Assembly: GCA_964640965.1 (NCBI GenBank)
Contig: CAZXJB010000002.1
Location: 1-46,210 of the forward strand
DNA from: an uncultured Actinomycetes bacterium
Lineage (GTDB): Bacteria > Actinomycetota > UBA4738 > HRBIN12
Length of the DNA: 46,210 bases
Direction: 5' to 3'
Of this stretch, positions 20,746-43,636 are shown piece by piece; within the stretch, counting starts at the first letter, position 1, and each line of letters starts with the position of its first letter. A model generated the notes under the pieces. That model saw only the letters and a program-made list of their open reading frames with translations, searched no databases and had not been told where the DNA came from. The position numbers were made by a program, and so were the translations under genes.

Positions 20746-20773
20746 CTTCAGCGGCGCCAGGGTCCGCCGACGG
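20746..20773 (+). promoter_or_regulatory. sigma-28-type promoter candidate upstream of the M15 peptidase gene
   Basis: CTTCAG-N14-GCCGACGG, ending 9 nt before ATG 20783. One member of the nine-site motif family. Confidence 0.6.
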
Positions 20774-20782
20774 GACCAGCGT

Positions 20783-21346
20783 ATGGACGCCCTCGGCGCG
20801 ATCGGCGGGGTCCTCGGGCGGGTGGAGCAGATCGAGGCGATGGCGGCGAACCTGGCCTCGAGCTTCGCGACCGCGCTCGCGCAGGCAGAGCGGACCCTCG
20901 CCCTCGCCCCGACACGAGCGCTCGCGCCCGCGCCAAGGGGCCTGCTCCCCGACACGGGGTCGTACGGCGTCTCGACCTCGGGTCCGCCGCTGCCCGAAGG
21001 CCTCACGCCCGAGCTCGTGTCCTGGCGCGGCGTTATCCTGAACCCCGCCGCGATGGCGAGCCTCCAGGAGGCCTCGCGCTCCCTCGGTTCCCCGATCCGC
21101 GTCACCGACTCCTACCGCAGCCACGCGCAGCAGGCGGCGGCCTACGCGCGCAAGCCGGGCCTCGCCGCGCCACCGGGCTCGAGCTACCACGAGCGGGGGC
21201 TCGCGATCGACGTGGACGGGGATGCCTACGGCGGCTACGCGAGCGCGGCGTTCCGGCGCGTGGTCGAGGTCTTGGAGTCCCTCGGGTGGCACCGCTTCGA
21301 CCCGCAGGGCGAGCCGTGGCACTTCTCGTACCTGGTGACCGGCTGA
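20783..21346 (+). CDS. peptidase M15 (VanY / D-Ala-D-Ala carboxypeptidase-like LAS metallopeptidase)
   Basis: The C-terminal half, PIRVTDSYRSHAQQ...APPGSSYHERGLAIDV...GWHRF.....EPWHFSY, matches the H-x6-D...H zinc-ligand layout of VanY/M15. ATG 20783 lies in frame within track ORF 20408..21346. Confidence 0.8.
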   Translation: MDALGAIGGVLGRVEQIEAMAANLASSFATALAQAERTLALAPTRALAPAPRGLLPDTGSYGVSTSGPPLPEGLTPELVSWRGVILNPAAMASLQEASRSLGSPIRVTDSYRSHAQQAAAYARKPGLAAPPGSSYHERGLAIDVDGDAYGGYASAAFRRVVEVLESLGWHRFDPQGEPWHFSYLVTG

Positions 21347-21361
21347 GGCGGCCGGCGGGCT

Positions 21362-21607
21362 TCAGCCGTCCGACGGAGCCTGCGGCTTCCGCGCCCGACG
21401 GAGCACCGGGGAGTCGCGGTCGGCGGAGGCCACGGCCGCCGCGTTCTCCCGCATGACCTCGAGGTAGACCTCCTCGCGGTGCACGCTCACGGACCTCGGC
21501 GCGTCGATCCCGAGGCGGATGTGGTCGGGCCGGACCTCGAGGACGGTCACGACGATGTCGTTGCCGATGATGATGGACTCGCCCTGCTTCCGAGACAGGA
21601 CCAGCAT
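21362..21607 (-). CDS. csrA: carbon storage regulator CsrA
   Basis: MLVLSRKQGESIIIGNDIVVTVLEVRPDHIRLGIDAPRSVSVHREEVY is a near-canonical CsrA core. Overlaps the fliW stop. Confidence 0.93.
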   Translation of the reverse strand: MLVLSRKQGESIIIGNDIVVTVLEVRPDHIRLGIDAPRSVSVHREEVYLEVMRENAAAVASADRDSPVLRRARKPQAPSDG

Positions 21608-22032
21608 CAGCCCGCCACCAGCTTCACCGGGGCCCGCACCGGGTAGCTCGAGTCCGACAGGATGACCTGCCGGCCCCGCCTCGTCTCGGCGTTCACCACG
21701 AACGGGGCGAGCAGGTTCAGGTACACGGTCTCGCGCTCGGCGTCGAGCGTCACCGCGCAGAAGACGATCGCGTCCTCCCGGCGCTCGATCCCGAGGGACG
21801 CCCGCTCCAGCTCCGACAGCTCCGGCGCGTAGTCCGGGAAGAAGAGCCAGGGCACGGTGACGAGGAGGGCGACCTCGGGCTCATCGAGGCTCTGCAGCAG
21901 CTGGAAGACCGAGTCCTCCGCGACCTCGACGAGGACGAACCGGCGCGAGCCCGGGAAGCCCGGGATCCCGTCCTCGAAGGTGAGGACGTGCTCCTGTCCG
22001 ATCAGATCCCGTTCGCTCGTCAGCGTCGCCAC
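21607..22032 (-). CDS. fliW: flagellar assembly factor FliW (CsrA antagonist)
   Basis: LTFEDGIPGFPGSRRFVLVEV..DSVFQLLQSLDEPEVALLVTVPWLFFPDY...YLNLLAPFVVN..TRRGRQVIL. GTG 22032 lies in frame within track ORF 21607..22494. Confidence 0.88.
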   Translation of the reverse strand: MATLTSERDLIGQEHVLTFEDGIPGFPGSRRFVLVEVAEDSVFQLLQSLDEPEVALLVTVPWLFFPDYAPELSELERASLGIERREDAIVFCAVTLDAERETVYLNLLAPFVVNAETRRGRQVILSDSSYPVRAPVKLVAG

Positions 22033-22055
22033 CCGGCCCCCTCGGTCGCCCCAGG

Positions 22056-22940
22056 TTAGCGCAGGAAGTCCACGAGCGAGGGCTGGAGGACCTGGGACAT
22101 CGCTCCGAGCGTCGCCCGGTAGGCGACCTCCTGGAGCTGGAGCTCCATGACGGCCTCGGCGAGGTCCGCGTCCTCGATGCCCGAGAGCTCGCCGGTCAGC
22201 GCCAGCTGCTCGTCGGCGAGCCGAGCCTGCGCCCGCTCGATCCGGTTGCCGGCGGCCCCGATCTCGGCGAGCCCGTCGAGCACCCGGCCGAGGGCCGCGT
22301 CGACCTCGCCGATGGCCGCCCCCACCGCTCCCGCGTCGCCCGCCGTCACGAGCGAGGCGAGGTCCTCGAGCATCGTGAAGACGTCCCGCCCGGCGGTGAA
22401 CCCGAAGACCTCGTCGGCCGTGACGCTCACCGTCACGTCCTCGCCGTCCCCGACGCGACGCACCACGCGTGTCCCGTCGCCGGTGTACGTCCACGTCCCG
22501 CCCACGTTCGTCACCGCCGGCGAGGTGGCCGTCCCGGCGAACAGGCCCTGCTCGCCGTTCCGCGCATTGGCGATGGCCACGAGCCCGTCCCGGATCGACC
22601 CCAGCTCCGCGGCGATCGCCGCCCGCTCGGTCGGCGAGGTCGTGGAGGCGGCGCGCACGGCGAGCTCGCGGGCCCGCTGGAGGCTGTCCGCGGCCGCGCG
22701 CAGCTGCGAGTCCGCGAGCGCGACCCAGGTCGCGCCGTCCTGCGCGTTGCGCGCGTGCTGCTCCTTGGCCCGCTGCAGGGCCCGCAGGCCGAGCACGCTG
22801 CTCATCCGACCAGGATCGTCCGACGGTCGACGCACGACCTTGCCCGACGACAGGCGCACCTGCGCCGCCTGGAGCTGGGCCAGGCGGACGCGCAGGCGCT
22901 CCAGCGAGTCCTGCACGAGCATCCCCTGCGTGATGCGCAT
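22056..22940 (-). CDS. flgL: flagellar hook-associated protein 3 (FlgL)
   Basis: MRITQGMLVQDSLERLRVRLAQLQAAQVRLSSGKVVRRPSDDP is a flagellin-like N-terminus, with C-terminus AYRATLGAMSQVLQPSLVDFLR. Located downstream of flgK. Confidence 0.88.
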   Translation of the reverse strand: MRITQGMLVQDSLERLRVRLAQLQAAQVRLSSGKVVRRPSDDPGRMSSVLGLRALQRAKEQHARNAQDGATWVALADSQLRAAADSLQRARELAVRAASTTSPTERAAIAAELGSIRDGLVAIANARNGEQGLFAGTATSPAVTNVGGTWTYTGDGTRVVRRVGDGEDVTVSVTADEVFGFTAGRDVFTMLEDLASLVTAGDAGAVGAAIGEVDAALGRVLDGLAEIGAAGNRIERAQARLADEQLALTGELSGIEDADLAEAVMELQLQEVAYRATLGAMSQVLQPSLVDFLR

Positions 22941-22947
22941 CCTGTGG

Positions 22948-24315
22948 CTACCTCCCCACGAGACCGGTCCGGTTGATCAGCACGTCGAGCGCCTCGTCGA
23001 CGACGCTCATCAGGCGCGCCGCCGCGTCGAAGGCGTGCCGCGCCTCGATGAGCGCGGTCATCTCCTCGTCGAGCGAGACCCCGTGCTCGCCCTGGCGCGC
23101 GAGCTCCGCCGCGGCCGTGAGCTGCCGCTGGGTCTCCGTCGCGCGAAGGGCTCCGGCGACGGTGGCGCCGAGGCCCACCGCGAGGGCTCGCGCGGCGCCC
23201 CCCAGCGTGTCGGTGCCGCCCGAGGCCGCGAGGGCGGTCCGCAGGCCTGCGAGGGCTCGGGCGTTCTCGCCGTTGAAGGCGGGGAACGGCGGTCCCGGCT
23301 GCGAGGAGGCCGCGAGCTGCGACGGGTCGGAGATCGCGACCTGCAGCGTGCGGGCCGCGTCCCCCGGCGTGTACGAGAGCAGCGCTCCGCCGGGGGTCGA
23401 GTCCGAGACCCAGCCGGCCTGGTGCTGGGCGTTCAGCGCCTCGGCGAGGTCCTGGGCGAAGGCGTCGAGATCCGCACGGAGGCTCGGGAGGTCCTCGAGC
23501 AGGAAGCGGCGATACCCCCCGATCTCGCCCCCGGGCGCGAGGCTCGCGCCGGTCGCCGCATCGACGAGATCGAAGGAGGCTGTGAGCTGGACCGTCGTCG
23601 CGACGGTCCCGTCGACGAGCCCCATGCCGCCCACGCTCACACGCACCGTCCCGTCCTCCTGCGGGATCGCCCGGGCTCCGATGAGCACGGCCAGCCGGTC
23701 CACCAGGGCGTCGCGCTGGTCGAGGAGGGTCCCGTCCGGCTGCCCGGTGGGCGTGGCCACGATCGCGCGGTTCACGTCCGCCACCGACCGCAGGAGGTCG
23801 TTCACCTCGTCGACGCGCGTCTGCAGGGTGGTCGCGGCGTCGCGCTCGAGGGCGTCCCAGGCGCCCGCGACCGCCCGGATCCGAGCGGTCACGTCCCGCA
23901 GGGCGTTCAGGACGGTGATCCGGGTCCCGGAGCTCGTCGGAGAGAGCGCCAGCTCCTCGAAGGCCGCCCAGAGCTCGGCGAGGGGCGCGGAGATCCCCTG
24001 GTCGGGCTCGGCCAGGGCGGCCTCGGCCCGCTGCAGCAGCTCGGCTCGCACCGACAGCTGCCCCAGGAGATCCTGGCCGCCCCGGACGCGGGCATCCAGG
24101 AACAGGTCTCGCGTCCGCGCGATGGCCGCGACGTCCACCCCGCCCCCCATCCACCCCTCGGCGCTGAGGTAGGAGGGCGCGGGGACGAGCTCCACGCGCC
24201 GGCGCGTGTACCCGGGGGTCGCCGCGTTCGCCACGTTCCCGGCGGCGGTGTCGATGCGGACCCTCGCCGCCCGCAGGGCCGTGAGCGCCGTGTTCAGCGA
24301 GACGAAGTCGGCCAC
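22948..24315 (-). CDS. flgK: flagellar hook-associated protein 1 (FlgK)
   Basis: FVSLNTALTALRAARVRIDTAAGNVANAATPGYTRRRVEL at the N-terminus and GVSLDEEMTALIEARHAFDAAARLMSVVDEALDVLIN at the C-terminus. Confidence 0.9.
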   Translation of the reverse strand: MADFVSLNTALTALRAARVRIDTAAGNVANAATPGYTRRRVELVPAPSYLSAEGWMGGGVDVAAIARTRDLFLDARVRGGQDLLGQLSVRAELLQRAEAALAEPDQGISAPLAELWAAFEELALSPTSSGTRITVLNALRDVTARIRAVAGAWDALERDAATTLQTRVDEVNDLLRSVADVNRAIVATPTGQPDGTLLDQRDALVDRLAVLIGARAIPQEDGTVRVSVGGMGLVDGTVATTVQLTASFDLVDAATGASLAPGGEIGGYRRFLLEDLPSLRADLDAFAQDLAEALNAQHQAGWVSDSTPGGALLSYTPGDAARTLQVAISDPSQLAASSQPGPPFPAFNGENARALAGLRTALAASGGTDTLGGAARALAVGLGATVAGALRATETQRQLTAAAELARQGEHGVSLDEEMTALIEARHAFDAAARLMSVVDEALDVLINRTGLVGR

Positions 24316-24321
24316 CCGCCC

Positions 24322-24834
24322 TCAGAGCTCCCGATCGACGCGGGCGGGCCTCGGGACGACCGGCTCCCGACGACCCGAGGGGTCGTAGGTGTCCCCCACC
24401 TCGTCACCGACGAGGGCGTCGAGGTTCTCGCGGACGTGCTCGGCGGCGGCCGCCGCAACCCGGCGGTTCTCCGCCGCGACCTCCTCAATCTCCTCGACGA
24501 GCTTGCGGAAGCCATCGCGGTGCTCCCGGAACATCGTGGCCGCCGGCTCCGGCGCGTGCTCGGCGAGGTAGGAGAGGCTGAGCCGCTCCGCCGGCACCCC
24601 CCACTCCTCCGCCAGGCGCGCGACGGCGGTCGCCCGCAGCAGCTCCGCCTCGCGCAACCGCTCGATCGCGATCTCGACCTCACCGAGGGCGGGGGTCACG
24701 AAGGCCCGCGCGTCGGCAGCGAGCACCAGCCGCGCCGTCACGAGCTTGAACAGCAGGAACTCCAGGAGGTGCCGCTCGGCCCAGAGCCGCTGCATGAGCT
24801 CGTGCAGGCCCTCGGAGGGAGGATGCCGGCCCAT
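24322..24834 (-). CDS. flgN: FlgN-like flagellar export chaperone (assigned by position, size and helical character)
   Basis: 170-aa helical protein immediately upstream of flgK (LHELMQRLWAERHLLEFLLFKLVTARLVL). ATG 24834 lies in frame at the tail of artefactual track ORF 24322..25986. Confidence 0.6.
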   Translation of the reverse strand: MGRHPPSEGLHELMQRLWAERHLLEFLLFKLVTARLVLAADARAFVTPALGEVEIAIERLREAELLRATAVARLAEEWGVPAERLSLSYLAEHAPEPAATMFREHRDGFRKLVEEIEEVAAENRRVAAAAAEHVRENLDALVGDEVGDTYDPSGRREPVVPRPARVDREL

Positions 24835-24841: not shown

Positions 24842-24869
24842 CCGTCGGCCGGTCGGGGACGGTCTGAAG
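24842..24869 (-). promoter_or_regulatory. sigma-28-type promoter candidate for flgN-flgK-flgL-fliW-csrA
   Basis: The minus strand reads CTTCAG-N14-GCCGACGG-GGCTGAC-ATG, which implies a leaderless or near-leaderless transcript. Confidence 0.55.
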
Positions 24870-24923: not shown

Positions 24924-25084
24924 GAGTAGGGTACGGTGGACGGTGGGTCCGCCTCGCGGGCCGGTGCGCGGGGTCCGGGCGTCGATCGGGGGTGATCGCA
25001 ACGCCGAGGAGAGGCAGGTCCGATCGTCCGGGCGATGCGGCCGCCGAAGGAACCCCCGAGGCGGAAGCCCGGGACGAAGGCGAG

Positions 25085-25651
25085 GTGGAGCGGCTCCGTG
25101 CGGAGCTCCGCCGCCTGACCGAGGAGATCGGGTTCCTCCGCCTGCAGCTCGACACGCTCACGACGATCGACCCGACGACCGGCCTCCTCAACCGGAACGG
25201 CTTCGTCGAGGCCATCGAGATGGCGCTGCAGCGCCTCGACCGTCTCGCGGAGCCCTTCGCGCTCACCGGTGTGTACCTGCCCGGGCTGCCCGAGCTCATG
25301 GCCCCCGACCCCGACCGGGCTCCCGAGGTGCTCCGCCACGTGGCCGCGCTGCTCGCGGCCTGCGTCCGCAGCCTCGACCGGGTGGCGCGCCTGGACGAGC
25401 GCACGTTCGCCGTGATCGCCCCGACGGTCTCGCGCCGCGACCACCTCGTGCAGCTGAACCGTATCCGGAGCGTGCTCACGGCCGCGGCGGTGGTCCCCGA
25501 AGAGCTCGGCGACCGCGAGCTCGACGTGCGCTTCGCGGTGGTGGTCGTCGAGGCCGTCGGCGAGCACGGCCCCGAGGACGTGCTCCAGGCGCTCATCGAG
25601 GCGCTGCGACGGGCCCGACCCGACCGCCCCGAGCTCGTGCTCAGGCCGTGA
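25085..25651 (+). CDS. coiled-coil + degenerate GGDEF domain protein (active site DERTF, I-site RSLD retained)
   Basis: DPTTGLLNRNGFVEAIEMAL...VLRHVAALLAACVRSLDRVARLDERTFAVIAP aligns position-for-position with the PleD-type VLREVARRL..VRAIDLPCRYGGEEFVVIMP (recalled from memory). GTG 25085 (GAAGG SD, and GC3 rises here) is preferred; GTG 24992 is possible. The 3' end overlaps the fliH 3' end by 11 nt (convergent). Confidence 0.7.
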   Translation: MERLRAELRRLTEEIGFLRLQLDTLTTIDPTTGLLNRNGFVEAIEMALQRLDRLAEPFALTGVYLPGLPELMAPDPDRAPEVLRHVAALLAACVRSLDRVARLDERTFAVIAPTVSRRDHLVQLNRIRSVLTAAAVVPEELGDRELDVRFAVVVVEAVGEHGPEDVLQALIEALRRARPDRPELVLRP

Positions 25652-26225
25652 GGCCCCCACCCGAGGCCCCGAGGACCTCGCCGATCGCCTGGCACGCCGC
25701 GTCGTAGGTGAGGTCCGCGGAGGACCAGGGGCCGCGGAGCCGGGCCTCCCCCGGCGCGAGCGACGCGTCGCCCCGGAGCGTGACCGTCGCCGGATCCAGG
25801 GCCTCCCGCAGCGCGGGCACGTGGTCGGGATGTACGGTGAGCTCGAGCGGCGCGTCGTCGATCGCCTCGAGGGCCTGGCGCACGCGCGCGAGCACCGTCG
25901 AGGCCTCCACCGGCTCGCGCCCGAGGACGTGCCGGACGATCCGGAGGGCGAGGTCCACCACGCGCCCGGCCTCCTCGACGCGCCACCGCCGGAGCGTCTC
26001 GATGCCTTCCTCGAGCCCCGCCCGGACCTCCGCGAGGAGCTGCACCGCGGCGTCGGCGGCCGCCGCCCGACCCTCCTCGAACCCGGCGGCACGCCCGCGC
26101 TCGAACGCGTCTCGACGCTCGGCCTCGAGCAGGGCGACGAGCTCGGCCGGCAGGGCGTTCGGCGAGGGCACGTCCACCCGCCGCGGGTGCGCGACCACGC
26201 TCGGACGTCGGAGCACGCTACTCAA
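25641..26225 (-). CDS. fliH: flagellar assembly protein FliH
   Basis: Located after fliG. Central Ala/Glu-rich helix ERRDAFERGRAAGFEEGRAAAADAA. C-terminal domain LELTVHPDHVPALREAL...VTLRGDASLAPGEARLRG. Confidence 0.8.
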   Translation of the reverse strand: MSSVLRRPSVVAHPRRVDVPSPNALPAELVALLEAERRDAFERGRAAGFEEGRAAAADAAVQLLAEVRAGLEEGIETLRRWRVEEAGRVVDLALRIVRHVLGREPVEASTVLARVRQALEAIDDAPLELTVHPDHVPALREALDPATVTLRGDASLAPGEARLRGPWSSADLTYDAACQAIGEVLGASGGGLTA

Positions 26226-27246
26226 CGAGCGCCCCCTCGCCGTCGTGGCGCATGACGATCTTCCCCTCCTCGTCCAGGCGGCGAATCACCGCGACGATCT
26301 TGCTCTGCGCCTCCTCGACGTCCCGGACCCGCACGGCCCCCAGGGCCTCGACCTCCTCGAGCAGGGTCTGGCGGGCGCGCTCGGAGAGGTTCCGCAGGAC
26401 GACCTCGCGGACCTCCTCGCTCACCCCCTTCATCGCGAGCGCCAGCACCTGAGGCTCGACGCTCCGCAGGATCTCCTGGATGTCACGGTCCCGGAGCTGC
26501 ACGATGTCCTCGAACAGGAACATGAGGGACCGGACCTGGTCGGCGAGCTCGGGCGAGTAGCTCTCCAGGCCGGAGAGGATCGCGCGCTCGGTCGCGCGGT
26601 CCGCGCTGTTCAGGATGTTCGCGAGCTCCTTCACCCCGCCGCGCTGCGTGAGCTCGGTCTGCGTGCCCGTGCGGCCGAGCTGGGCCCGGAGCGACTCCTC
26701 CGCGCGGCGGATCAGCTCCGTCGGAACGCGCTCCATCCGCGCGATCCGGACCGCGACGTCCGCGCGCAGAGCGGGCTCCAGCCCCGACAAGACCGTCGCC
26801 GCGTGCATGGGCGGCAGGTGCGCGAGGACGACGGCGATCGTCTGGGGGTGCTCCCCCTGCAGGTACTGGACGAGCTCGCCCGGCTCCACCTCGAGGAGGA
26901 AGCTGAACGGGGTCGCCAGGGAGGCGCTCACGATCCGCTCGATGATCTCGTCGGCGCGTCCCCCCTTCCAGGTCGACAGCAGCTCCTTCGCGTACTCCAC
27001 GCCGCCGCGGAGCACCGCCTCGCGCGCGGCGGTCTCCCCTTGGAGCTCCTCGAGCACCTCGTGGAGGACCTCGGACGGCAGATGTCGGAGGTTGGCGATC
27101 TCGGCCGCCAGGGCCTCGATCTCCTCCTCGGTCAGGTACTCGAGCAGCTTCGAGGCCTCACGGGTCCCGATCGCGACGACGAGGGCCGCCGCCTTCTGCG
27201 GCGGCGCGAGGTTCCCCCGTCGGATGTCGAGCTGGTTCGTCATCAC
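26218..27246 (-). CDS. fliG: flagellar motor switch protein FliG
   Basis: PPQKAAALVVAIGTREASKLLEYLTEEEIEALAAEIANL...ERVPTELIRRAE...MFLFEDIVQLRDRDIQEILR...VSEEVREVVLRNLSERA. Confidence 0.93.
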   Translation of the reverse strand: MMTNQLDIRRGNLAPPQKAAALVVAIGTREASKLLEYLTEEEIEALAAEIANLRHLPSEVLHEVLEELQGETAAREAVLRGGVEYAKELLSTWKGGRADEIIERIVSASLATPFSFLLEVEPGELVQYLQGEHPQTIAVVLAHLPPMHAATVLSGLEPALRADVAVRIARMERVPTELIRRAEESLRAQLGRTGTQTELTQRGGVKELANILNSADRATERAILSGLESYSPELADQVRSLMFLFEDIVQLRDRDIQEILRSVEPQVLALAMKGVSEEVREVVLRNLSERARQTLLEEVEALGAVRVRDVEEAQSKIVAVIRRLDEEGKIVMRHDGEGALVE

Positions 27247-28731
27247 CTACCGCCTCCGATCCGCCAGCCACGAGCGCAGCAGGGTGGCGATCTCCTCGGG
27301 CTGGCGCTGCACGAGCTCCATCACGTCCGTGGTCGCGGGCCGTGCCGCGAGCGGTGGGGCCGCCGCGGGCCCTTGCTGCGAGGCGGGCAGCTGCTCGGGC
27401 TGGATGAAGGCGAGCTCCGGCGGGGGCTCCGCACGGCGCCGGCCGCGTGAGCGGAGCATCATGAGGAACAGGGCGGCGCCGACGAGCAGGACGACGAGTC
27501 CCCCCGCGAGCCGAGGGGCCTTTGCCAGGAGCCCCGGGGCGGCGGCCTCCTTCCTCGGCTCGGGCTTCGGGAAGGGCATCTGGGTCACCTCGATCGTGTC
27601 GCCCCGGGCCGGATCCAAACCCAGGGCGGCCGAGACCACGGCTCGCACCTGCCCGGGGTCGGCCGGGGTGATGCCCGTGTTGTCGCCGTTGTCCATGACG
27701 ACGGCCACCGACAGGCGCTCGACGTCGCCCGGGGCCTGCACCGTGGTCGTCGCCTCGCGGCTGACCGCGAAGGTCTGGCGCTCCTCCGTCCGCTCGTAGC
27801 TCACGTTCGAGCCCGGCGGCACCGCCCCCGTATCCGCCCCCCCTTGGTCGAGGACCTCGCGGGTGGAGGACGAGTCGATCGGGACGGCGGTCCCCGGATC
27901 CACGGTCTCGGTCTCCGTGGAGGTCTGGTCGAAGTTCAGCTGGGCGCGGACCACCACGGACGCGGTCTGTCCGCCGGGCACGCTCGCGAGCAGCCGCTGG
28001 ACGTCGGCGGCGAGGGCCCGCTCGTACTCGCGCGTGAGCTCCAGGGTCCGGCCGCCCGTGAAGCCGAGGGGATCGTCCCCCGGAGCGGCCAGGACCGTCC
28101 CACCGGTGTCCGCGACGGTCACGGCCTCCGGCGTGAGCCCGGGGACGGCGTTCGCGACCAGGAAGACGATGGAGCGGACCTGCTGCTCGCTGAGCGGCGC
28201 CGCTGGATCGACGAGGACCGAGGCCGTGACGTCCGGCCGGCCCTGCTCGAACGGCGACCGCTCGGGGATCGCGAGGCGCACGCTCGCGCCCGCGATCCCG
28301 TCCATCTCCATCAGCGTGCGCGCGAGCTCCCCCTCGAGCGCCCGCTGGTAGTCCACGCGCTGCTGGAAGTCCGTCGCGCCCAAGCCCTGCTCGTCGAACA
28401 GCTCGTAGCCCGGCGGGAGGGTCTGCCCGGAGACCCCGGCCTCGGCGAGCGAGGCCCGGACCCGGTAGACCTGGTCCTGGGGGACCATCACGCGGGAGCC
28501 ACCGCCCTCGATGCGGTACGGCACCCCCTGCGCGTCGAGCTCTTGCACGACCTGCGCGAGCCCCTGGTCGTCGAGGTTCGCGTACAGCAGCGCGTAGCTC
28601 GGGGTCGTGAGCCAGCGCACGAACGCCACGGCGGCGAGCGCCAGGACGATCAGGCACACGACGATGCCGACCTGCTGCGCCGGCGTGGTCATCGCGAGGA
28701 AGCCGCGGATCCTGTGCTTCAGCTGCTCCAT
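27247..28731 (-). CDS. fliF: flagellar M-ring protein FliF
   Basis: N-terminal TM VGIVVCLIVLALAAVAFV, then YALLYANLDDQGLAQVVQELDAQGVPYRIEGGGSRVMVPQDQVYRVRASLAEAG, and a C-terminal TM plus the FliG-binding tail. Confidence 0.92.
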   Translation of the reverse strand: MEQLKHRIRGFLAMTTPAQQVGIVVCLIVLALAAVAFVRWLTTPSYALLYANLDDQGLAQVVQELDAQGVPYRIEGGGSRVMVPQDQVYRVRASLAEAGVSGQTLPPGYELFDEQGLGATDFQQRVDYQRALEGELARTLMEMDGIAGASVRLAIPERSPFEQGRPDVTASVLVDPAAPLSEQQVRSIVFLVANAVPGLTPEAVTVADTGGTVLAAPGDDPLGFTGGRTLELTREYERALAADVQRLLASVPGGQTASVVVRAQLNFDQTSTETETVDPGTAVPIDSSSTREVLDQGGADTGAVPPGSNVSYERTEERQTFAVSREATTTVQAPGDVERLSVAVVMDNGDNTGITPADPGQVRAVVSAALGLDPARGDTIEVTQMPFPKPEPRKEAAAPGLLAKAPRLAGGLVVLLVGAALFLMMLRSRGRRRAEPPPELAFIQPEQLPASQQGPAAAPPLAARPATTDVMELVQRQPEEIATLLRSWLADRRR

Positions 28732-28840
28732 CCCACCTCACCGGTCGTCGCCGCCGCGCCGGAGGCGCGGGCTCGGTCCCGCCGGCCCTCCGCCGGCGCG
28801 GCGCCGTCCCTGGCGAGGTCCCCGATCCTTCCCCTGCTCC

Positions 28841-28868
28841 CGGTCGGCGGGCGCGCGGGCCGCTTAAA
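28841..28868 (-). promoter_or_regulatory. sigma-28-type promoter candidate for fliF-fliG-fliH
   Basis: The minus strand reads TTTAAG-N14-GCCGACCG, about 110 nt upstream of the fliF ATG. Confidence 0.55.
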
Positions 28869-28927: not shown

Positions 28928-29215
28928 TCAGCGCGGGGCGGACAGGTAGCCGCGGGCCGCGCGACGCGCGTCCCGCCCGGTCCGCAGCTCCGCGGCGGTC
29001 TCTCGCAGCGCCGCGAGGATCCGCGCGCGGCACGCCTCCGCCCGGGCGAGCAGGCGTTCGAGCCGTTCGGCGTCACGGGGGCCGAGTCCGGACGGGGGCT
29101 CGGACGGGGGCGTCCAGGTCGGCACGTCGTCCCAGGCTCCCGTCTCCAGGGCGCGCTCGATCGCGGACAGGCGGGCCTCGAACCCGTCCAGGGCGGCGGA
29201 GAAGGACCGGCTCAT
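28928..29215 (-). CDS. small helical hypothetical protein in the fliT position (95 aa)
   Basis: The ATG overlaps the fliD stop (ATGA). MSRSFSAALDGFEARLSAIERALE...AERLERLLARAEACRARILAAL. No family recognised; not FlgM-like. Confidence 0.5.
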   Translation of the reverse strand: MSRSFSAALDGFEARLSAIERALETGAWDDVPTWTPPSEPPSGLGPRDAERLERLLARAEACRARILAALRETAAELRTGRDARRAARGYLSAPR

Positions 29216-31110: not shown

Positions 31111-31143
31111 CCCCTCCTCACGGGCGCATCCTCACGGACGCGG

Positions 31144-31171
31144 GGGGTGGCGCCCGGACGGACGCCACCCC
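31144..31171 (-). terminator. hairpin downstream of fliC copy 1 (GGGGTGGCG-10 nt-CGCCACCCC)
   Basis: 9-bp GC stem 28 nt after the fliC stop. No U-tract. It is followed by the SD GGAGGGG and the ATGATG start of fliD. Confidence 0.45.
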
Positions 31172-31198
31172 ACCGATCGTCGCGGTCCGGTCCCACGG

Positions 31199-32029: not shown

Positions 32030-32033
32030 CTCC

Positions 32034-32042
32034 CACCTCCTT
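32034..32042 (-). promoter_or_regulatory. fliC Shine-Dalgarno AAGGAGGTG (candidate CsrA site 2)
   Basis: The minus strand reads ACAAGGAGGTGGGAG-ATG, so a GGA motif lies within the SD. Confidence 0.6.
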
Positions 32043-32059
32043 GTCGCATCGGCGCATCA

Positions 32060-32075: not shown

Positions 32076-32083
32076 CAGGTGGC

Positions 32084-32111
32084 CCGTCGGCGGGGGTCGG
32101 TGGGGGTTAAG
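32084..32111 (-). promoter_or_regulatory. sigma-28-type promoter candidate, fliC copy 1
   Basis: The minus strand reads CTTAAC-N14-GCCGACGG, 55 nt upstream of the fliC ATG. Confidence 0.65.
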
Positions 32112-32114
32112 GGG

Positions 32115-32551: not shown

Positions 32552-32584
32552 CCCCTCCTCACGGGCGCATCCTCACGGACGCGG

Positions 32585-32612
32585 GGGGTGGCGCCCGGAC
32601 GGACGCCACCCC
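32585..32612 (-). terminator. hairpin downstream of fliC copy 2
   Basis: Same sequence as 31144-31171, inside the repeat. Confidence 0.45.
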
Positions 32613-32639
32613 ACCGATCGTCGCGGTCCGGTCCCACGG

Positions 32640-33470: not shown

Positions 33471-33500
33471 CTCCCACCTCCTTGTCGCATCGGCGCATCA

Positions 33501-33516
33501 CCGACCTCCGTGTCGG
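33501..33516 (-). promoter_or_regulatory. 5'-leader GGA hairpin, fliC copy 2
   Basis: Repeat copy of 32060-32075. Confidence 0.5.
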
Positions 33517-33524
33517 CAGGTGGC

Positions 33525-33552
33525 CCGTCGGCGGGGGTCGGTGGGGGTTAAG
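33525..33552 (-). promoter_or_regulatory. sigma-28-type promoter candidate, fliC copy 2
   Basis: Repeat copy of 32084-32111. Confidence 0.65.
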
Positions 33553-33572
33553 GGGGGTGAAGGCCGGAGGCG

Positions 33573-33600
33573 CTTCACCGGCGAGGTTCGCGGCCGACCG
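33573..33600 (+). promoter_or_regulatory. sigma-28-type promoter candidate for the HD-GYP gene
   Basis: The plus strand reads CTTCAC-N14-GCCGACCG, ending 10 nt before ATG 33611. The -35-like box lies inside the 1045-bp repeat and the -10-like box lies outside it. Confidence 0.55.
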
Positions 33601-35140: not shown

Positions 35141-35439
35141 TCCGCGATCCCCCGCTGGTCCGCGATCCCCCGCTGATCCGGGGAGCCCACGCTCTCGGTC
35201 TCGGCCGCGACCCCCTCCCCCGCCCTCGACCCGCCGTCCGGGTTGGGGAGCGGGGGCAGGAGCGAGCGCAGGCCGGCCGTGAGCGCCCTCCCGACGACCA
35301 TGCACACGGCGAGCGTGGCGGCGGCCCGCAGGGCCGCGTCCTCGGGCGAGAGGGAGCCGAGCGCGAGCATCAGGCCCACCGGAGCGAGCACCAGGAGGCC
35401 CGCCGTGGCGACGAGCCTGCGGACGGGGGGCGCCGTCAT
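35074..35439 (-). CDS. small 2-TM membrane protein with a DQRGIA-repeat tail, hypothetical
   Basis: The ATG overlaps the flhF-like stop (ATGA). MTAPPVRRLVATAGLLVLAPVGLMLALG...LAVCMVVGRALTAGL. GC3 is high throughout. The 3' 67 nt overlap the convergent HD-GYP gene, so the true stop is uncertain. Confidence 0.45.
   Translation of the reverse strand: MTAPPVRRLVATAGLLVLAPVGLMLALGSLSPEDAALRAAATLAVCMVVGRALTAGLRSLLPPLPNPDGGSRAGEGVAAETESVGSPDQRGIADQRGIADQRGNASSAASTTIGSNAEPAP
35131..35180. repeat. 18-bp tandem repeat, ~2.8 copies (CCCCCGCTG[A/G]TCCGCGAT)
   Basis: Units at 35131-35148 and 35149-35166 (1 mismatch), with a partial third at 35167-35180. The first unit contains the HD-GYP stop codon. On the minus strand it encodes DQRGIA repeats. 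Confidence 0.85.
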
Positions 35440-36419
35440 CGCCGTGCCACCAGGTCGCGGATTGCGAGGGCCACGTCCACCGCGGTGGCCCGCACCACCC
35501 GGGCCCCGACCACCCCGTAGCCGAGGATCGCGCCGTCCTGCGCGCACCAGCGGAGCGCCTCGGCGACGTCCCCCGGCTCCACCCAGGAGACGACCTTCGG
35601 GCGCCACTCGCGCAGGTGCTGCGCCCCCGGCCCGCCGAGGACCGCGTGGACGTACCGGCCGGCCTGCGCCCGAGCGAGCCACGCGAGGTCGGCGCCGCCC
35701 TCGTCCAGGAGCACGCAGACCGTGCCCTCGTTGCGGGGCAGCTCCGGGGATCGGACCAGCGGGAGCTCGAGCGCCCGGGCCAGCCGGTCGGCGTGGGGAC
35801 CGATCACGAGGGCGGGGCCATCCGGCGGCGGAGGACAGTGGCGCGCCACCCAGCCGGCGATCGCCGCCACCCACCCGAGGTCGTCGCGGGGCGCGAGCCG
35901 AACCACCGCCTCGATGAGACCGTACGGCAGCCCGAGCCGCACGAGCTCGTCGGGGCTCCAGGCCACGGTCCCGAGCCCGAAGGGCGCGGAGGGGGCCGGC
36001 CTCGCCCGCTCCGCTCCTTCGGCGGCCGCGCGCCCCGCCTCCCGCGGGGCGGCGGTGGGGCCCACGCCCGTGAGCGCTCCGTCGGCCGTGATCGGAGCGC
36101 CCACCTCGCGTCCGCGATCGCCGTCCAGGGCTGCGGCCAGGGCCTCGGGGAAGGACGCCCGCTCCGCCGCTCCGCGCGCCGCCTCGGCGCTCATCCGCGC
36201 GAGGGCCGCCGCGTCCGCGGCTCGCGCGGCCGTGAGCTGCACCATCTCCCTCGCGAAGAACCCCGCGATGCCGCCGCGGCGGACCCGCTCGGCGCTCAGG
36301 ATCTTCGCGTCCGCGCCGAGGCGCTCCGTGACGACCTCGAGCGCCTCCTCCGCGCTCGGCGCCTCGACGACGAGGAGGTCGCCCTCCGCCGCCTCACGCG
36401 GGTGCGGGTGCCTGGACAT
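35436..36419 (-). CDS. flhF: FlhF-like protein lacking recognisable GTPase motifs
   Basis: N-terminal LLVVEAPSAEEALEVVTERLGADAKILSAERVRRGGIAGFFAREMVQL resembles the FlhF B-domain. The position after flhA fits. Where GxxGxGKT and DTAGR are expected I read LVIGPHADRLARAL and CVLLDEGG. Confidence 0.65.
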   Translation of the reverse strand: MSRHPHPREAAEGDLLVVEAPSAEEALEVVTERLGADAKILSAERVRRGGIAGFFAREMVQLTAARAADAAALARMSAEAARGAAERASFPEALAAALDGDRGREVGAPITADGALTGVGPTAAPREAGRAAAEGAERARPAPSAPFGLGTVAWSPDELVRLGLPYGLIEAVVRLAPRDDLGWVAAIAGWVARHCPPPPDGPALVIGPHADRLARALELPLVRSPELPRNEGTVCVLLDEGGADLAWLARAQAGRYVHAVLGGPGAQHLREWRPKVVSWVEPGDVAEALRWCAQDGAILGYGVVGARVVRATAVDVALAIRDLVARR

Positions 36420-38436: not shown

Positions 38437-38437
38437 C

Positions 38438-39481
38438 TCACATCACCCCCCGCCGCCGGCGCCGGTAGGCGATCGCGATCACCACGGCGACGGCCTCGTA
38501 CAGGGCGGGCGGCACGAAGCGCCCCACGCGGCACCGGCGGTACAGCTCGCGGGCGAGCGGCGGATCCTCCCGGATCATCACGCCGTGGCGCGCGGCCAGC
38601 CGCCGCAGCTTCAGCGCGAAGCGCCCGGCGCCCTTGGCGACGACCCTCGGCGCCGGCTCACCGGGGGTGTACCGGAGGGCGACCGCGAGGTGCGTGGGGT
38701 TCGTCACGACCACGTCCGCGGTCGTCACCTCCACGAGCATCCGGTTCCGCGACAGCTCCCGGTGACGCCGGCGCCGATGCATCCGCACGAGGGGATCCCC
38801 CTCCATCTCCTTGTGCTCCTGCTTCAGCTCCTGGCGGGTCATGCGCTGGGCCCGCTCGGTGCGCACCCGGGCCACCACGTAGTCGGCCGCGGCGATCAGC
38901 GCCACGAGGAACGCGACCCGCACGAGGATCGTCCAGCCCCGGGCGCCGGCGAGCGCGAGCCACTCGGGGAGGCTCCGCGCGCGGGTCGCCTCGCCCACCA
39001 CGTCGCGGATGGGCGCCCACACGACGGCGACGAGCAGCCCGACCTTCAGCGCCGCGCGCCCCGCCTCCCACCCGAGGTTCGAGGGCCGCAGGCGCTCCAG
39101 CCCCTGACGCGGCGACAAGCGGGAGAGCTTCGGCGTGAGCGCGCCCGGGGCGAGCAGGAACCCGGTCTGGACCACCCCGCCCGCCACCCCGAGGGCGAGG
39201 GCGAGGGCGAGGAACGGCAGGACCGCCCCACCGAGCATGTCGAGGACCACGTCGCGGACGTGCGAGGGTGGCGGCTCGAGCGCCGAGATCCGCAGCAGCT
39301 CCCGCGTGCCGAGCGCGAGCTCGCGGCCGGCCGCCGGGAGCAACGTCCGGGCAGCGATCGCCGCGCCGAGCAGGGAGACCGCCGCCCCCACCTCGGGGCT
39401 GCGTGCGACCCGCCCCTCCCGCCGGGCCCGTCGTTTGGCTCTCGGTGTCGGCTTCTCGGTGCGGCCGTCGAACCGGCCCAC
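38438..39481 (-). CDS. flhB: flagellar export apparatus protein FlhB
   Basis: GRTEKPTPRAKRRARREGRVARSPEV at the N-terminus and the autocleavage motif VVVTNPTHLAVAL. GTG 39481 after GGAGGGA is preferred; the upstream 49 codons of the track ORF have poor GC3. Confidence 0.9.
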   Translation of the reverse strand: MGRFDGRTEKPTPRAKRRARREGRVARSPEVGAAVSLLGAAIAARTLLPAAGRELALGTRELLRISALEPPPSHVRDVVLDMLGGAVLPFLALALALGVAGGVVQTGFLLAPGALTPKLSRLSPRQGLERLRPSNLGWEAGRAALKVGLLVAVVWAPIRDVVGEATRARSLPEWLALAGARGWTILVRVAFLVALIAAADYVVARVRTERAQRMTRQELKQEHKEMEGDPLVRMHRRRRHRELSRNRMLVEVTTADVVVTNPTHLAVALRYTPGEPAPRVVAKGAGRFALKLRRLAARHGVMIREDPPLARELYRRCRVGRFVPPALYEAVAVVIAIAYRRRRRGVM

Positions 39482-39538
39482 GGTCCCTCCCCGCGACCCG
39501 CGCCGATCCGTGGCTCGTCCGCGTCCGTGCCGTGATGC

Positions 39539-39566
39539 CCGTCGGCACGGCGGGCATGCGCTAAAC
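39539..39566 (-). promoter_or_regulatory. sigma-28-type promoter candidate upstream of flhB
   Basis: The minus strand reads GTTTAG-N14-GCCGACGG, 58 nt upstream of GTG 39481. Confidence 0.5.
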
Positions 39567-39691: not shown

Positions 39692-39814
39692 TCACCGGAC
39701 CTTCACCTGCTTGCGCGGCCGGGGCGCGAGCGCGAGCTGGCAGTCGCGGCAGAGGTCCTGCCCCACGCCTACCAGGGGCTGCCCGCACCTGGCGCAGAAC
39801 ACGAAGCCGAGCAT
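39692..39814 (-). CDS. 40-aa zinc-ribbon ORF (CxxC-x11-CxxC) between fliR and flhB
   Basis: MLGFVFCARCGQPLVGVGQDLCRDCQLALAPRPRKQVKVR. Strong SD AAGGAGGG lies 5 nt before the ATG. It forms the tail of artefactual track ORF 39692..40645. Confidence 0.5.
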   Translation of the reverse strand: MLGFVFCARCGQPLVGVGQDLCRDCQLALAPRPRKQVKVR

Positions 39815-39867
39815 CTCGCCCTCCTTGGCATCCACGCCGGCCGGATCCCTCCGGCCCTCATCGGGTC

Positions 39868-39895
39868 CCCTCGGCAGGACCCGGCGATCCTCAAG
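39868..39895 (-). promoter_or_regulatory. sigma-28-type promoter candidate upstream of the zinc-ribbon ORF
   Basis: The minus strand reads CTTGAG-N14-GCCGAGGG, starting 9 nt after the fliR stop. Confidence 0.45.
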
Positions 39896-41790: not shown

Positions 41791-42241
41791 GGGGACGCCC
41801 CGACGTCCGCAGCGTCATCCGACGCAGCCGTTCGACGAGGCCCGTCCCTGGGCCGTCCGATGGATCCGAAGGAAGGTCGAGGGGCATGAGCGCGCCCTCG
41901 AGGACGGACGAGGCGCCGGGCGCGCGCCCGTGGAACCGAGCGCGACCGCGCGGGTCCGGGTGCGGCGCGGCGACGGGGGCCATGGCGCCCTGGGCGGGCT
42001 CGAGCTCCGCGAGCAGGCGGGGACCGCCGCGGTCGCCGCTGCCGACCAGGAACCGCCGGTCGTCCACCCCCACGAGGAACAGGGCGGTGCCCTTGGCCAG
42101 GCTGAGACGCCCGAGCAGCCGGAGGCCGGCGCCCGGCCCGGGGCGCACGCGCCGCAGCAGGCGCCCGGCGAGGAGCGCGCCGCCCACGACGAGCGCCAGG
42201 CTCCCGACGAAGCGGATCACCTGCTCGGCGGTGGCAGCCAC
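41774..42241 (-). CDS. fliO: FliO-like protein
   Basis: Single TM FVGSLALVVGGALLAG, then LRLLGRLSLAKGTALFLVGVDDRRFLVGSG. Lies between fliN and fliP. Confidence 0.65.
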   Translation of the reverse strand: MAATAEQVIRFVGSLALVVGGALLAGRLLRRVRPGPGAGLRLLGRLSLAKGTALFLVGVDDRRFLVGSGDRGGPRLLAELEPAQGAMAPVAAPHPDPRGRARFHGRAPGASSVLEGALMPLDLPSDPSDGPGTGLVERLRRMTLRTSGRPHVAVR

Positions 42242-42245
42242 CGTG

Positions 42246-42626
42246 TCAGGCCCCCTCGGGGTCGGTCGCCGCGGCCGGGTCCAGCACCTCGGTGATCCGC
42301 ACGCCGAACTCGTCGTCGACGACGACCACGTCCCCCCGGGCGACGAGCCGGCCGTTCACGAGCACGTCCACCGGTGCCCCCGGGGCCCGGTTCAGCTCGA
42401 TCACGCTGCCCTCCCGGAGGGAGAGCAGGTGCCGGACCTTCATGACCGCGCGGCCGAGCTCGACCGTCACGTCGAGGGGCACGTCCGAGAGCAGTCGGAG
42501 ATCCCCCGGCGTCCCGCGTGAGGTCCCCGGCCCGAGCTCCACCAGGTCGGCCGGCGCGACGTCCGCCGACCCCGACGGCGCGGCGCCCGGCTCCACCGTC
42601 CTCTCCCCGTCCGCGGTTGCGCTCAC
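42246..42626 (-). CDS. fliN: flagellar motor switch protein FliN
   Basis: C-terminal SpoA domain LLSDVPLDVTVELGRAVMKVRHLLSLREGSVIELNRAPGAPVDVLVNGRLVARGDVVVVDDEFGVRI. GTG 42626 (GTGA overlap with the fliM stop, GGAAGGAG SD) is preferred to ATG 42650. Confidence 0.88.
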   Translation of the reverse strand: MSATADGERTVEPGAAPSGSADVAPADLVELGPGTSRGTPGDLRLLSDVPLDVTVELGRAVMKVRHLLSLREGSVIELNRAPGAPVDVLVNGRLVARGDVVVVDDEFGVRITEVLDPAAATDPEGA

Positions 42627-43609
42627 GATCGGACTCCTTCCTCGCTCCATCCCACGATCCGCACGCCGAGCCGCCTTCCCCGTCGGCCGAGGTAACCCGC
42701 GAGCACGTCCACCCCCCGGACGAGGACCCGGACGGGCTCGTCCACCCGGTGGCTCGTCCGCAGCACGTCCCCGGGCTCCAGCGCCGCGAGCTCCCGAGCG
42801 GGGACGGTCGCCGGCAGGAGCCGTACCGCGACGGGGACGACGGCCTCCTCGAGGTGGGAGGCGATCGCTCCCGCTTGATCCGGCGTCGGCTCCTCCGGCT
42901 CGACCGGCTCCGTCACGGCGTGCCGTTGGAGCCGGTCCATCACCGGTTGCAGGGTCGGGTGGGGGTAGCACACGGTGAGCAGGCCCTCGACGGTGCTCGC
43001 GGCCGCGAGGGAGACGGTGTAGGAGAGCAGCAGCGTCGTCTCCGACGGCGGCACCACCTGCACGAAGCTCGGGTTCGTCTCGACGTGGAGGACCTCCGGC
43101 TCGACGGCGACGAGCGGCGCGAAGGTCTCGCGGAACGCCTCGATCGCGTACCGGACGATGTCCCCGAGCAGACGCGTCTCGAGCTCGGTCGGACGCCGGA
43201 TCGACACCGGCGATCCGAGCCCGCCGAGCGCCCGGTCGACGAGGACGAGGGCAAGGGGCACGCCCACCTCGACGATCACCTCGCCCGGCAGCGGTCGAAG
43301 GCCGACGAGCACGAGCACCGAGGGGTTCGGCAGCGAGCGGATGTAGTTCTCGTAGGTGATCTCCTCGATCGCCACGGGCCGCAGCTGGACGGAGGCTCGG
43401 AGCGCGTGCGCGATCGAGCTCGCGAACCGCCGCGAGAAGGTCTCGTGCAGACCCTCGAGGCTCCGGACGTGCTCCCTGGCGAACTTGCTCGGCCGGCGGA
43501 AGTCGAACGGCATGGGTCCACGCATCGGCAGCGCCGACGCGCCGTCCTCGAGCGTGGTGAACCCGTGGTCGATCAGCGCTACCCCCTGACGTGCCTTCCC
43601 TGCGGGCAC
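42623..43609 (-). CDS. fliM: flagellar motor switch protein FliM (start uncertain: GTG 43609 or ATG 43525)
   Basis: FDFRRPSKFAREHVRSLEGLHETFSRRFASSIAHALR...YENYIRSLPNPSVLVLV, plus a C-terminal SpoA-like region. Confidence 0.88.
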   Translation of the reverse strand: MPAGKARQGVALIDHGFTTLEDGASALPMRGPMPFDFRRPSKFAREHVRSLEGLHETFSRRFASSIAHALRASVQLRPVAIEEITYENYIRSLPNPSVLVLVGLRPLPGEVIVEVGVPLALVLVDRALGGLGSPVSIRRPTELETRLLGDIVRYAIEAFRETFAPLVAVEPEVLHVETNPSFVQVVPPSETTLLLSYTVSLAAASTVEGLLTVCYPHPTLQPVMDRLQRHAVTEPVEPEEPTPDQAGAIASHLEEAVVPVAVRLLPATVPARELAALEPGDVLRTSHRVDEPVRVLVRGVDVLAGYLGRRGRRLGVRIVGWSEEGVRS

Positions 43610-43636
43610 CGTCGGCTGTCCGGAGCCACGCTCAAG
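43609..43636 (-). promoter_or_regulatory. sigma-28-type motif between fliL and fliM
   Basis: The minus strand reads CTTGAG-N14-GCCGACGG. The -10-like box abuts or overlaps GTG 43609. Confidence 0.4.

Follow-up and report, generated by a model that had tools for sequence, protein, structure and literature searches.

A flagellar gene cluster on contig CAZXJB010000002.1 of an uncultured Actinomycetes bacterium (GenBank assembly GCA_964640965.1) was found to carry ten copies of a bipartite element, all of which lie sense-upstream of flagellar or motility genes and have the same targets in related genomes. The whole stretch of DNA analysed, referred to here as the window, is 46,210 bp long and has a G+C content of ~74%. 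We propose, with a probability of roughly 0.86 that holds equally for both parts of the proposal, that the ten sites are sigma-28-type promoters, and that they would be read by RNA polymerase containing the FliA/WhiG1-type sigma factor encoded at 19604-20503. A first-pass annotation, made by eye and described as non-exhaustive, had listed nine sites; all nine were recovered (their coordinates carry one extra leading base), and a tenth, located before flbD, had been missed. The ten sites are as follows.

Site 1, 20746..20773, plus strand: CTTCAG-N14-GCCGACGG, 9 nt 5′ of the ATG of the vanY/M15 peptidase gene; predicted 2-nt leader.
Site 2, 24842..24869, minus strand: CTTCAG-N14-GCCGACGG, 7 nt 5′ of the flgN ATG; predicted leaderless flgN-flgK-flgL-fliW-csrA unit.
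Site 3, 28841..28868, minus strand: TTTAAG-N14-GCCGACCG, 109 nt 5′ of fliF; fliF-fliG-fliH unit.
Site 4, 32084..32111, minus strand: CTTAAC-N14-GCCGACGG, 54 nt 5′ of fliC copy 2 (fliC-fliD-orf95); identical duplicate of site 5.
Site 5, 33525..33552, minus strand: CTTAAC-N14-GCCGACGG, 54 nt 5′ of fliC copy 1 (fliC-fliS).
Site 6, 33573..33600, plus strand: CTTCAC-N14-GCCGACCG, 10 nt 5′ of the ATG of an HD-GYP-type (HD_5) cyclic di-GMP (c-di-GMP) phosphodiesterase gene; back-to-back with site 5.
Site 7, 39539..39566, minus strand: GTTTAG-N14-GCCGACGG, 58 nt 5′ of the flhB GTG, which is preceded by a Shine-Dalgarno (SD) sequence; flhB-flhA-orf327.
Site 8, 39868..39895, minus strand: CTTGAG-N14-GCCGAGGG, 50 nt 5′ of a 41-aa CxxC...CxxC zinc-ribbon open reading frame (ORF) between fliR and flhB.
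Site 9, 43609..43636, minus strand: CTTGAG-N14-GCCGACGG, beginning 12 nt past the fliL stop codon, 5′ of fliM-fliN-fliO-fliP-fliQ-fliR.
Site 10, 46099..46126, minus strand: GTTAAG-N14-CCCGACAG, slightly degenerate, 72 nt 5′ of flbD; flbD-motA-motB-fliL.

The gene downstream of site 10 was identified as flbD by a Pfam FlbD match (1.6e-21). Both fliC sites are located inside an exact 1045-nt direct duplication (31104-32148 = 32545-33589), the two copies of which lie on either side of fliS and each comprise fliC with its predicted promoter, its leader and 95 nt on the 3′ side; eight of the nine sites listed in the first-pass annotation are therefore independent. At the corresponding place the close relative L015 has one fliC and lacks fliS. 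The duplication is either a very recent event or an assembly artefact.

Occurrence and conservation of the paired boxes

Searching both strands of the window with TTNA-N15-GCCGASSG gave nine matches, compared to a mean of 0.10 in dinucleotide-preserving shuffles (n=100), none of which reached nine. The looser TTNA-N15-GCCGA returned the identical nine sites (0.52 expected). For TT.A-N(s)-GCCGA with spacers of 13, 14, 15, 16 and 17 nt there were 0, 3, 9, 2 and 0 matches, respectively, N15 alone being enriched, and no N15 match was present in the non-flagellar left 20 kb (1-20000). The downstream box GCCGASSG is abundant by itself (110 copies in the window, compared to 70 expected), with intragenic copies at 15834, 25554, 36079 and 42680, and the specificity of the motif thus resides in the pairing of both boxes. 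Each of the nine sites lies between genes and on the sense strand, at a distance of 7-109 nt 5′ of a start codon. Just 1.4% of the placements possible in the window share this combination; the corresponding p is roughly 1e-17 if the nine sites are assumed to be independent. The first-pass annotation had described an invariant spacer, a sense and intergenic position just 5′ of start codons, and a pairing that was no accident of composition; each of these descriptions agrees with the counts.

Beyond the two boxes the sites have no similarity to each other. GCCGA is present in nine of the ten sites and CCCGA in the flbD site, with CGA invariant throughout. All upstream gaps of at least 70 nt at flagellar genes hold a site, with the exception of two duplicated 88-nt gaps just 3′ of the fliC copies. 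An enumeration of 4-mer/5-mer dyads over the whole window was dominated by coding periodicity and was non-discriminating (TTAA-N16-CCGAC ranked fifth).

The relatives used for comparison were L015 (93% flagellin identity, fully syntenic), L024 (86% sigma identity), L020 (80% flagellin identity), and L018, L019, L021, L022 and L023 (flagellin identity 73-76%, G+C 61-65%). An FlhA search of species genomes added one actinobacterial locus, a 5.7-kb contig of a Nitriliruptoraceae metagenome-assembled genome (MAG; L001) with 64% FlhA identity, the nearest genome in that collection. Relatives in the protein database are labelled as Actinomycetota, Egibacteraceae or Acidimicrobiia MAGs. TT.A-N15-GCCGA was present in every relative locus fetched, with 1-6 matches each and 0-2 at other spacings, and no N15 excess was seen in 13 unrelated non-actinobacterial FlhA loci (proteobacterial or other phyla) serving as negative controls.

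A position weight matrix (PWM) covering only the boxes, built from 16 sites of distant relatives, ranked the ten window sites 1-10 of ~92,000 positions, with the flbD site sixth. This relatives-only PWM gave eight matches above 15 bits at the correct spacing and zero when the spacer was shifted by 1-3 nt. It replaced a PWM including the spacer columns, which was overfitted and lost the flgN site. When a window-derived PWM was applied to the relatives, ~24 of the 27 matches of at least 13 bits were intergenic and sense, and the top matches precede fliC, flgN, fliF, flbD, flgE, HD-GYP or EAL genes, vanY, the zinc-ribbon ORF, flhB and fliM.

In relatives of 61-74% GC (L015, L024, L020, L018, L019, L021, L022 and L001), the boxes keep their positions relative to the genes and the spacers have diverged. 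Orthologous vanY sites are located 9 nt (L024) and 7 nt (L018) from the start codon, and orthologous flgN sites 7 nt (L024), 8 nt (L020) and 35 nt (L021 and L022); the flgN site of L015 is slightly degenerate and in the same place (TTTAG-N14-ACCGACGG, 7 nt). An alignment of the fliF upstream regions of the window, L015, L024, L020 and L019 (alignment A1) has both boxes as its main invariant blocks with unrelated spacers, and further invariant, GGA-containing columns in the leader. In an alignment of eight fliC upstream regions (alignment A2), the boxes are likewise conserved and the spacer is variable. The HD-GYP gene has an orthologous site in L015 (13 nt), and in L021 and L022 EAL-HDOD genes bear sites instead. 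Orthologous flhB sites were found in L015 (GTTAAG...GCCGACGG) and, between fliR and flhB, in L001. L015 also has a zinc-ribbon ORF site (CTTGAC-N14-GCCGAGGG) and a slightly degenerate fliM site in the same place (CTCAAG-N14-GCCGACGT), and flbD sites are present in L021 and L022 (GTTAAT-N14-GCCGACAG).

In a compilation of 41 sites, which was partly motif-selected and leaves only positions -35, -10, -8 and -7 as free observations, C or G is found at -35 in 39/41, C at -10 in 38/41, G at -8 in 33/41 and G at -7 in 31/41. The bias at these four unselected positions leads to a clade consensus of (C/G)TTnA-N15-GCCGACnGG.

Register of the putative promoters and the cluster-linked sigma factor

The sites were set against the P. 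aeruginosa fliC promoter in the sigma-28 open complex resolved by cryo-electron microscopy (9WSM), which, in the available text of the structural report, reads TCTAAAG from -36 to -30 and GCCGATAA from -15 to -8 (PMC12784957). The canonical TAAA-N15-GCCGATAA (P. aeruginosa fliC; E. coli 6PMI) and the window sites have the same spacing and register. Common to the P. aeruginosa promoter and the window are C-35, T-34, A-31, G-30 (G/C here) and GCCGA at -15 to -11, whereas the canonical A-33 is T in the window, A-32 is variable, and T-10 A-9 A-8 are replaced by C(n)G. The TAA 3′ half of the -10 element is thus C(G/C)G in the window, and it is C(T/G/A)(G/T/A) in the relatives of lower GC content. 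According to the same portion of the report, P. aeruginosa sigma-28 flips and reads A-11 alone on the non-template strand and makes contacts to G-12, C-13 and the extended -10 GC; -7 is not flipped and is not conserved, and Ser224 of FliA contacts -34/-35 (PMC12784957). For the differing positions -10 to -8, the text available describes no base-specific contact (PMC12784957), and the -10 element is known to be most variable outside CGA (PMC12871210).

The sigma factor gene lies next to the cluster (19604-20503, minus strand; Pfam Sigma70 r2, r3 and r4), with a divergent vanY gene as the only gene between it and csrA-fliW-flgL; the synteny of sigma gene and cluster also occurs in L018, L021, L022 and L024. 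Its best relatives in the PDB are 6PFV (S. venezuelae WhiG), 6PMI (E. coli FliA) and 9WSM (P. aeruginosa FliA), and it scores 188 bits against TIGR02479 FliA_WhiG (curated cut-off 189.6). The equivalents of P. aeruginosa FliA Y76, R80, R82, D87, D93, R97, R101, R104 and Q228 are retained, and H100 is changed to Arg. WhiG2 is controlled by RsiG and c-di-GMP (PMC8325347); the WhiG2 residues contacting these two are absent from the window sigma, the c-di-GMP contacts K57/G61/R62 of S. venezuelae corresponding to Q31/N35/Q36 in the alignment to 6PFV. Because these residues are absent and the gene is linked to the cluster, the sigma factor is probably WhiG1-like.

Two further features of the protein were noted. 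Ala226 (19826-19828, minus strand; GVTEARVSQ) occupies the position of P. aeruginosa FliA Ser224 in region 4.2; Ala is found here in all 86 clade homologues with a locatable motif, and Ser in E. coli, P. aeruginosa and S. venezuelae. The change from Ser to Ala coincides with a -35 box of TTnA instead of TAAA, a correlation only. The protein also continues for ~55 aa past region 4 (19604-19770, minus strand; …EGVPEVPENAPGKRSRAAFFGLLATSSTWRDRLEAAEG…), and this extension is conserved in clade homologues to ~57% identity. The solved WhiG and FliA chains stop roughly at the end of region 4, and the extension may be relevant to the regulator of WhiG1 factors.

From these comparisons we infer which sigma factor reads the sites, where transcription would start and that the sites are active. 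Sigma region 4.2 would bind the -35 box (C/G)TTnA at -35 to -31, and regions 2 and 3 would bind GCCGA (-15 to -11), A-11 being flipped out; C(n)GG at -10 to -7 would be a GC-rich, lineage-specific stand-in for the canonical TAA. Transcription would start ~8 nt past the 8-mer. If the last base of the 8-mer is taken as -8, +1 is predicted to coincide with the A of the start codon at flgN, and to precede the ATG of vanY by 2 nt and that of the HD-GYP gene by 3 nt. Leaderless mRNAs or mRNAs with 2-3-nt leaders are predicted on this geometry for flgN, vanY and the HD-GYP gene, and leaders of ~20-100 nt with an SD sequence for fliC, fliF, flhB, the zinc-ribbon ORF, fliM and flbD. Box-to-start distances of 7-9 nt recur at flgN/vanY in L024, L020, L015 and L018; such distances are also seen for an EAL gene of L022 and a glycosyltransferase gene of L019.

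The sigma-28 assignment had already been proposed in the first-pass annotation, and the sigma gene, the register, the conservation and the geometry all favour it. The near-leaderless mRNAs suggested there for M15, flgN and the HD-GYP gene are likewise consistent with the geometry and with the recurring distances. The same can be said of the putative internal promoters within the fliL...flhB stretch, since the fliM, zinc-ribbon and flhB sites are kept in L015 and the flhB site also in L001. The gene assignments made at that stage agree with Pfam scans.

Weighing against a sigma-28 promoter reading are the following points. Of the four positions of the canonical TAAA, the -35 box agrees with only two, and the 3′ half of the -10 box has no canonical base. 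The sigma factor is 1.6 bits short of the TIGR02479 cut-off. None of the ten sites is a literal match to the search motifs published for actinobacteria, CTCA-N16-17-GCCGA, T(A/C)AA-N16-GCCGA or xT(C/A)Ax-N16-GCCGA; T(C/A)A-N17-GCCGA matches are intragenic and T(C/A)A-N16-GCCGA matches lie elsewhere in the window, the window sites being T(C/A/G/T)A-N15-GCCGA. To these are added the partial selection of the 41 compiled sites and the fact that the organism is known solely from a metagenome contig, the rest of whose genome could encode other sigma-28 paralogues or another sigma factor.

Alternative readings and comparison with known systems

This last point underlies the alternative that survives best, in which the sites do act as promoters but depend on an alternative sigma factor other than the linked one, such as a second sigma-28 paralogue or another group-3 or extracytoplasmic function (ECF) sigma encoded outside the contig. 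With 46 kb of genome available and the linked sigma marginally under the TIGR02479 cut-off, and given that A. missouriensis has three FliA paralogues, its flagellar promoters being read by FliA1 and FliA2 according to the part of the report available (PMC13083903), some weight has to be allowed to this reading. We nevertheless consider it improbable, as sigma-28 has a GCCGA core with A at -11 as its signature, and the cluster-linked sigma retains the contacting residues and its synteny with the cluster in L018, L021, L022 and L024; were a second sigma-28 paralogue responsible, the label would change and the mechanism would stay.

Still less probable is that the bipartite element is an operator, bound by an activator or repressor of the flagellar regulon, rather than a promoter. 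A conserved, directional element before co-regulated genes would also fit a regulator box, and TcrA of A. missouriensis binds upstream of five flagellar units, as stated in the available text of that report (PMC13083903). The half-sites, however, are unrelated to each other (neither palindrome nor direct repeat), their spacing is fixed at the -35/-10 distance, and the downstream box is the sigma-28 -10 core. A scan of the cluster found no sigma-70-like promoter, and the element ends 7-10 nt from the start codon at several genes, in the window and in relatives, which leaves no space for a separate downstream promoter.

The idea that the motif arose by composition or coincidence, or is a repeat dispersed in GC-rich DNA, might draw on the frequency of GCCGASSG (110 copies, above shuffles, probably via codon usage) and on the single duplication behind two of the nine sites, but is effectively refuted by the shuffles (nine sites compared to 0.1-0.5 expected), the excess at one spacing, the 100% intergenic and sense placement, the PWM ranking, and the retention of the boxes at the same gene positions between unrelated spacers in relatives of 61-74% GC, with no likeness between sites outside the boxes.

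The sigma-28 of enterobacteria, Pseudomonas and Bacillus acts mainly on late flagellar genes and is restrained by FlgM. In the window, by contrast, early genes bear sites too and no FlgM was detected in the cluster: there was no Pfam FlgM match, and the anti-sigma match of the 95-aa ORF after fliD (16.5 bits) is meaningless.

The closest known arrangement is that of A. missouriensis. As described in the available part of the report, its 11 flagellar transcription units are all under promoters recognised by FliA1/FliA2, FliA occurs as three paralogues, and TcrA acts upstream of five units (PMC13083903). The promoter consensus, CTCA-N16-17-GCCGAACT (Jang et al. 2016; Hashiguchi et al. 2020), is cited here as summarised in PMC13083903 and PMC12871210. 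Judged from these descriptions, both clusters are split into about ten units (11 compared to ten), with promoters of the sigma-28 family (predicted ones in the window) on all of them, early genes included, and both systems have a WhiG1-type sigma, a GCCGA -10 core and, once CTCA-N16 is set in the same register, CT at -35/-34. The A. missouriensis promoters are transcript-backed, whereas the window sites, with their consensus (C/G)TTnA-N15-GCCGACnGG, are predicted from sequence.

Several predicted WhiG1/WhiG2 promoters per flagellar cluster have been reported across Actinomycetota (Denis et al. 2026, mSystems; PMC13595943). In that survey the most frequent flagellar WhiG targets are flagellin and FlbD, c-di-GMP enzymes (diguanylate cyclases, DGC, and phosphodiesterases, PDE) are the most widespread targets, and FlgM is absent from almost all actinobacterial flagellar clusters (PMC13595943). 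The window agrees in having sites before fliC, flbD and the HD-GYP gene. The survey covered genera with at least two representative genomes and a conserved WhiG, and its text makes no mention of Nitriliruptoria or Acidimicrobiia (PMC13595943), whereas the lineage of the window is uncultured and has Nitriliruptoraceae, Egibacteraceae and Acidimicrobiia MAGs as its closest named relatives. The query of the survey, xT(C/A)Ax-N16-GCCGA, taken at face value has no match among the window sites. In Streptomyces and Rubrobacter, WhiG2 promoters have been searched for as TAAA/GCCGATAA with at most 2 mismatches, and DGC/PDE genes are among their targets (PMC8325347). These promoters have the sigma family and the GCCGA core in common with the window; the window sites, with at least 4 mismatches, fail the filter used for Rubrobacter. 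The presence of multiple sigma-28 promoters within actinobacterial flagellar clusters is already published; the lineage and the consensus are what is particular to the window.

Predicted transcription units, leaders and neighbouring genes

The window was annotated by Pfam scans. The genes of the cluster, in addition to the sigma gene, are as follows, with flagellar genes on the minus strand unless marked otherwise.

20783-21346, plus strand: vanY/M15 peptidase.
21362-24834, minus strand: csrA, fliW, flgL, flgK and flgN (csrA and fliW within 21362-22035).
24943-25651, plus strand: GGDEF gene, divergent from flgN.
25641-28731, minus strand: fliH, fliG and fliF.
28928-29215, minus strand: 95-aa ORF after fliD.
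Between the 95-aa ORF and the HD-GYP gene, minus strand: fliD, then fliC, fliS and fliC.
33611-35140, plus strand: HD-GYP-type (HD_5) gene.
35436-36419, minus strand: 327-aa ORF, followed by flhA and flhB.
39692-39817, minus strand: 41-aa zinc-ribbon ORF, with its own conserved promoter site (predicted).
Up to 46026, minus strand: fliR, fliQ, fliP, fliO, fliN, fliM, fliL, motB, motA and flbD.

The ten sites would define ten units: flbD-motAB-fliL; fliM-R; the zinc-ribbon ORF; flhBA with the 327-aa ORF; HD-GYP; fliC-fliS; fliC-fliD-orf95; fliFGH; flgN-flgKL-fliW-csrA; and vanY. They would cover all flagellar units visible in the window, early (fliF, flhBA, fliM-R) as well as late (fliC, flgKL), together with a c-di-GMP phosphodiesterase and a peptidoglycan peptidase. 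Scans of the cluster for sigma-70 promoters and intrinsic terminators found nothing, a result that is mute on other promoters and on unit boundaries; as no terminators are detectable, read-through between neighbouring units is possible. Neither the sigma gene nor the GGDEF gene that diverges from flgN, and is conserved in L020 and L021-L024, was found to have a convincing sigma-28-type site of its own.

At fliM, the GTG start of the longest ORF (window 43574-43616, minus strand) overlaps the final base of the -10 box. A GGGGG/GGAGGG SD sequence with an in-frame CTG ~30 nt downstream is common to the window and L015, and the intervening residues are unconserved. Since a transcript from site 9 would lack the GTG, the actual fliM start is probably downstream and unusual; the distance from the site 9 box to the conserved SD-CTG candidate is ~30 nt.

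Potential regulatory structures were observed in several leaders. The fliC leader (33471-33524 and 32030-32083, minus strand) contains a hairpin, GCCGAC-A(C/U)GGA(N)-GUCGGY, whose loop holds GGA; ACAAGGAGGU follows at the SD position. The hairpin stem is 100% paired across the eight leaders of alignment A2, with compensatory changes in 4/6 pairs. Together with csrA/fliW (21362-22035), this hairpin looks like the Bacillus-type CsrA-FliW-flagellin circuit. The fliF leader (28732-28840, minus strand) has an A(N)GGA motif, CCAGGGACGG, conserved in all five aligned fliF leaders; the flhB leader (39481-39538, minus strand) has the A(N)GGA motifs CACGGAC and CCACGGAUCGG; and the leader of the zinc-ribbon ORF (39818-39867, minus strand) has a CCGGAGGGAUCCGG hairpin. 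These motifs suggest that CsrA may control more than flagellin.

The observations on sigma factor, sites and leaders can be joined into one speculative reading, which we regard as unlikely in its entirety. The WhiG1-type sigma-28, with its clade-wide Ser-to-Ala change and ~55-aa extension, would be the sole promoter-specificity factor for the whole flagellar regulon, with no FlgM checkpoint and no transcriptional tiers. Assembly order would be set post-transcriptionally, via CsrA-FliW acting on leaders with GGA hairpins (fliC, possibly fliF, flhB and the zinc-ribbon ORF) and via c-di-GMP turnover, and the extension would be the missing regulatory input of WhiG1.

Several smaller genes were also compared. 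L015 has a 40-aa counterpart of the 41-aa zinc-ribbon ORF in the corresponding position (53% identity); the Nitriliruptoraceae MAG L001 lacks the ORF. No Pfam domain was found in the 327-aa ORF after flhA, which has only a weak match to the FlhF N-terminus (TIGR03499, E = 8e-9, residues 18-85). The 95-aa ORF after fliD is kept in relatives and, when aligned, resembles a small, helical, FliT-like protein. A VanY/M15 peptidase gene adjoins the sigma gene or the flagellar cluster in L015, L018 and L024 (M15_4 in L021-L023), and the peptidase with the near-leaderless site may be a cell-wall-remodelling enzyme for flagellar assembly.

Outside the flagellar cluster, an exact 147-nt direct repeat (8660-8806 and 9379-9525, 719 nt apart) adjoins a tRNA-Glu/Asp/Phe cluster. 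Its minus strand carries a look-alike of the paired boxes, TTCAC-N13-GCCGACGG, with a spacer one base short, followed by a 16-bp hairpin, GUGAACCCCUUG...CAAGGGGUUCAC. No Rfam match was found for the repeat, which could be a repeated terminator-like element or a small RNA.

The ten sites and their counterparts in relatives would define a conserved consensus, (C/G)TTnA-N15-GCCGACnGG, for promoters of the flagellar sigma factor in an actinobacterial lineage that is very rich in GC and has hardly been sampled; the search strings used so far in Actinomycetota would miss its sites. The understanding of sigma-28 itself is unchanged; the consensus would serve the annotation of operons and leaderless genes in MAGs of this kind. 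The Actinoplanes-type architecture, in which all flagellar units are sigma-28-dependent and FlgM is absent, would be extended to a deep uncultured branch, and a c-di-GMP phosphodiesterase and a peptidoglycan peptidase would be tied to the flagellar regulon.

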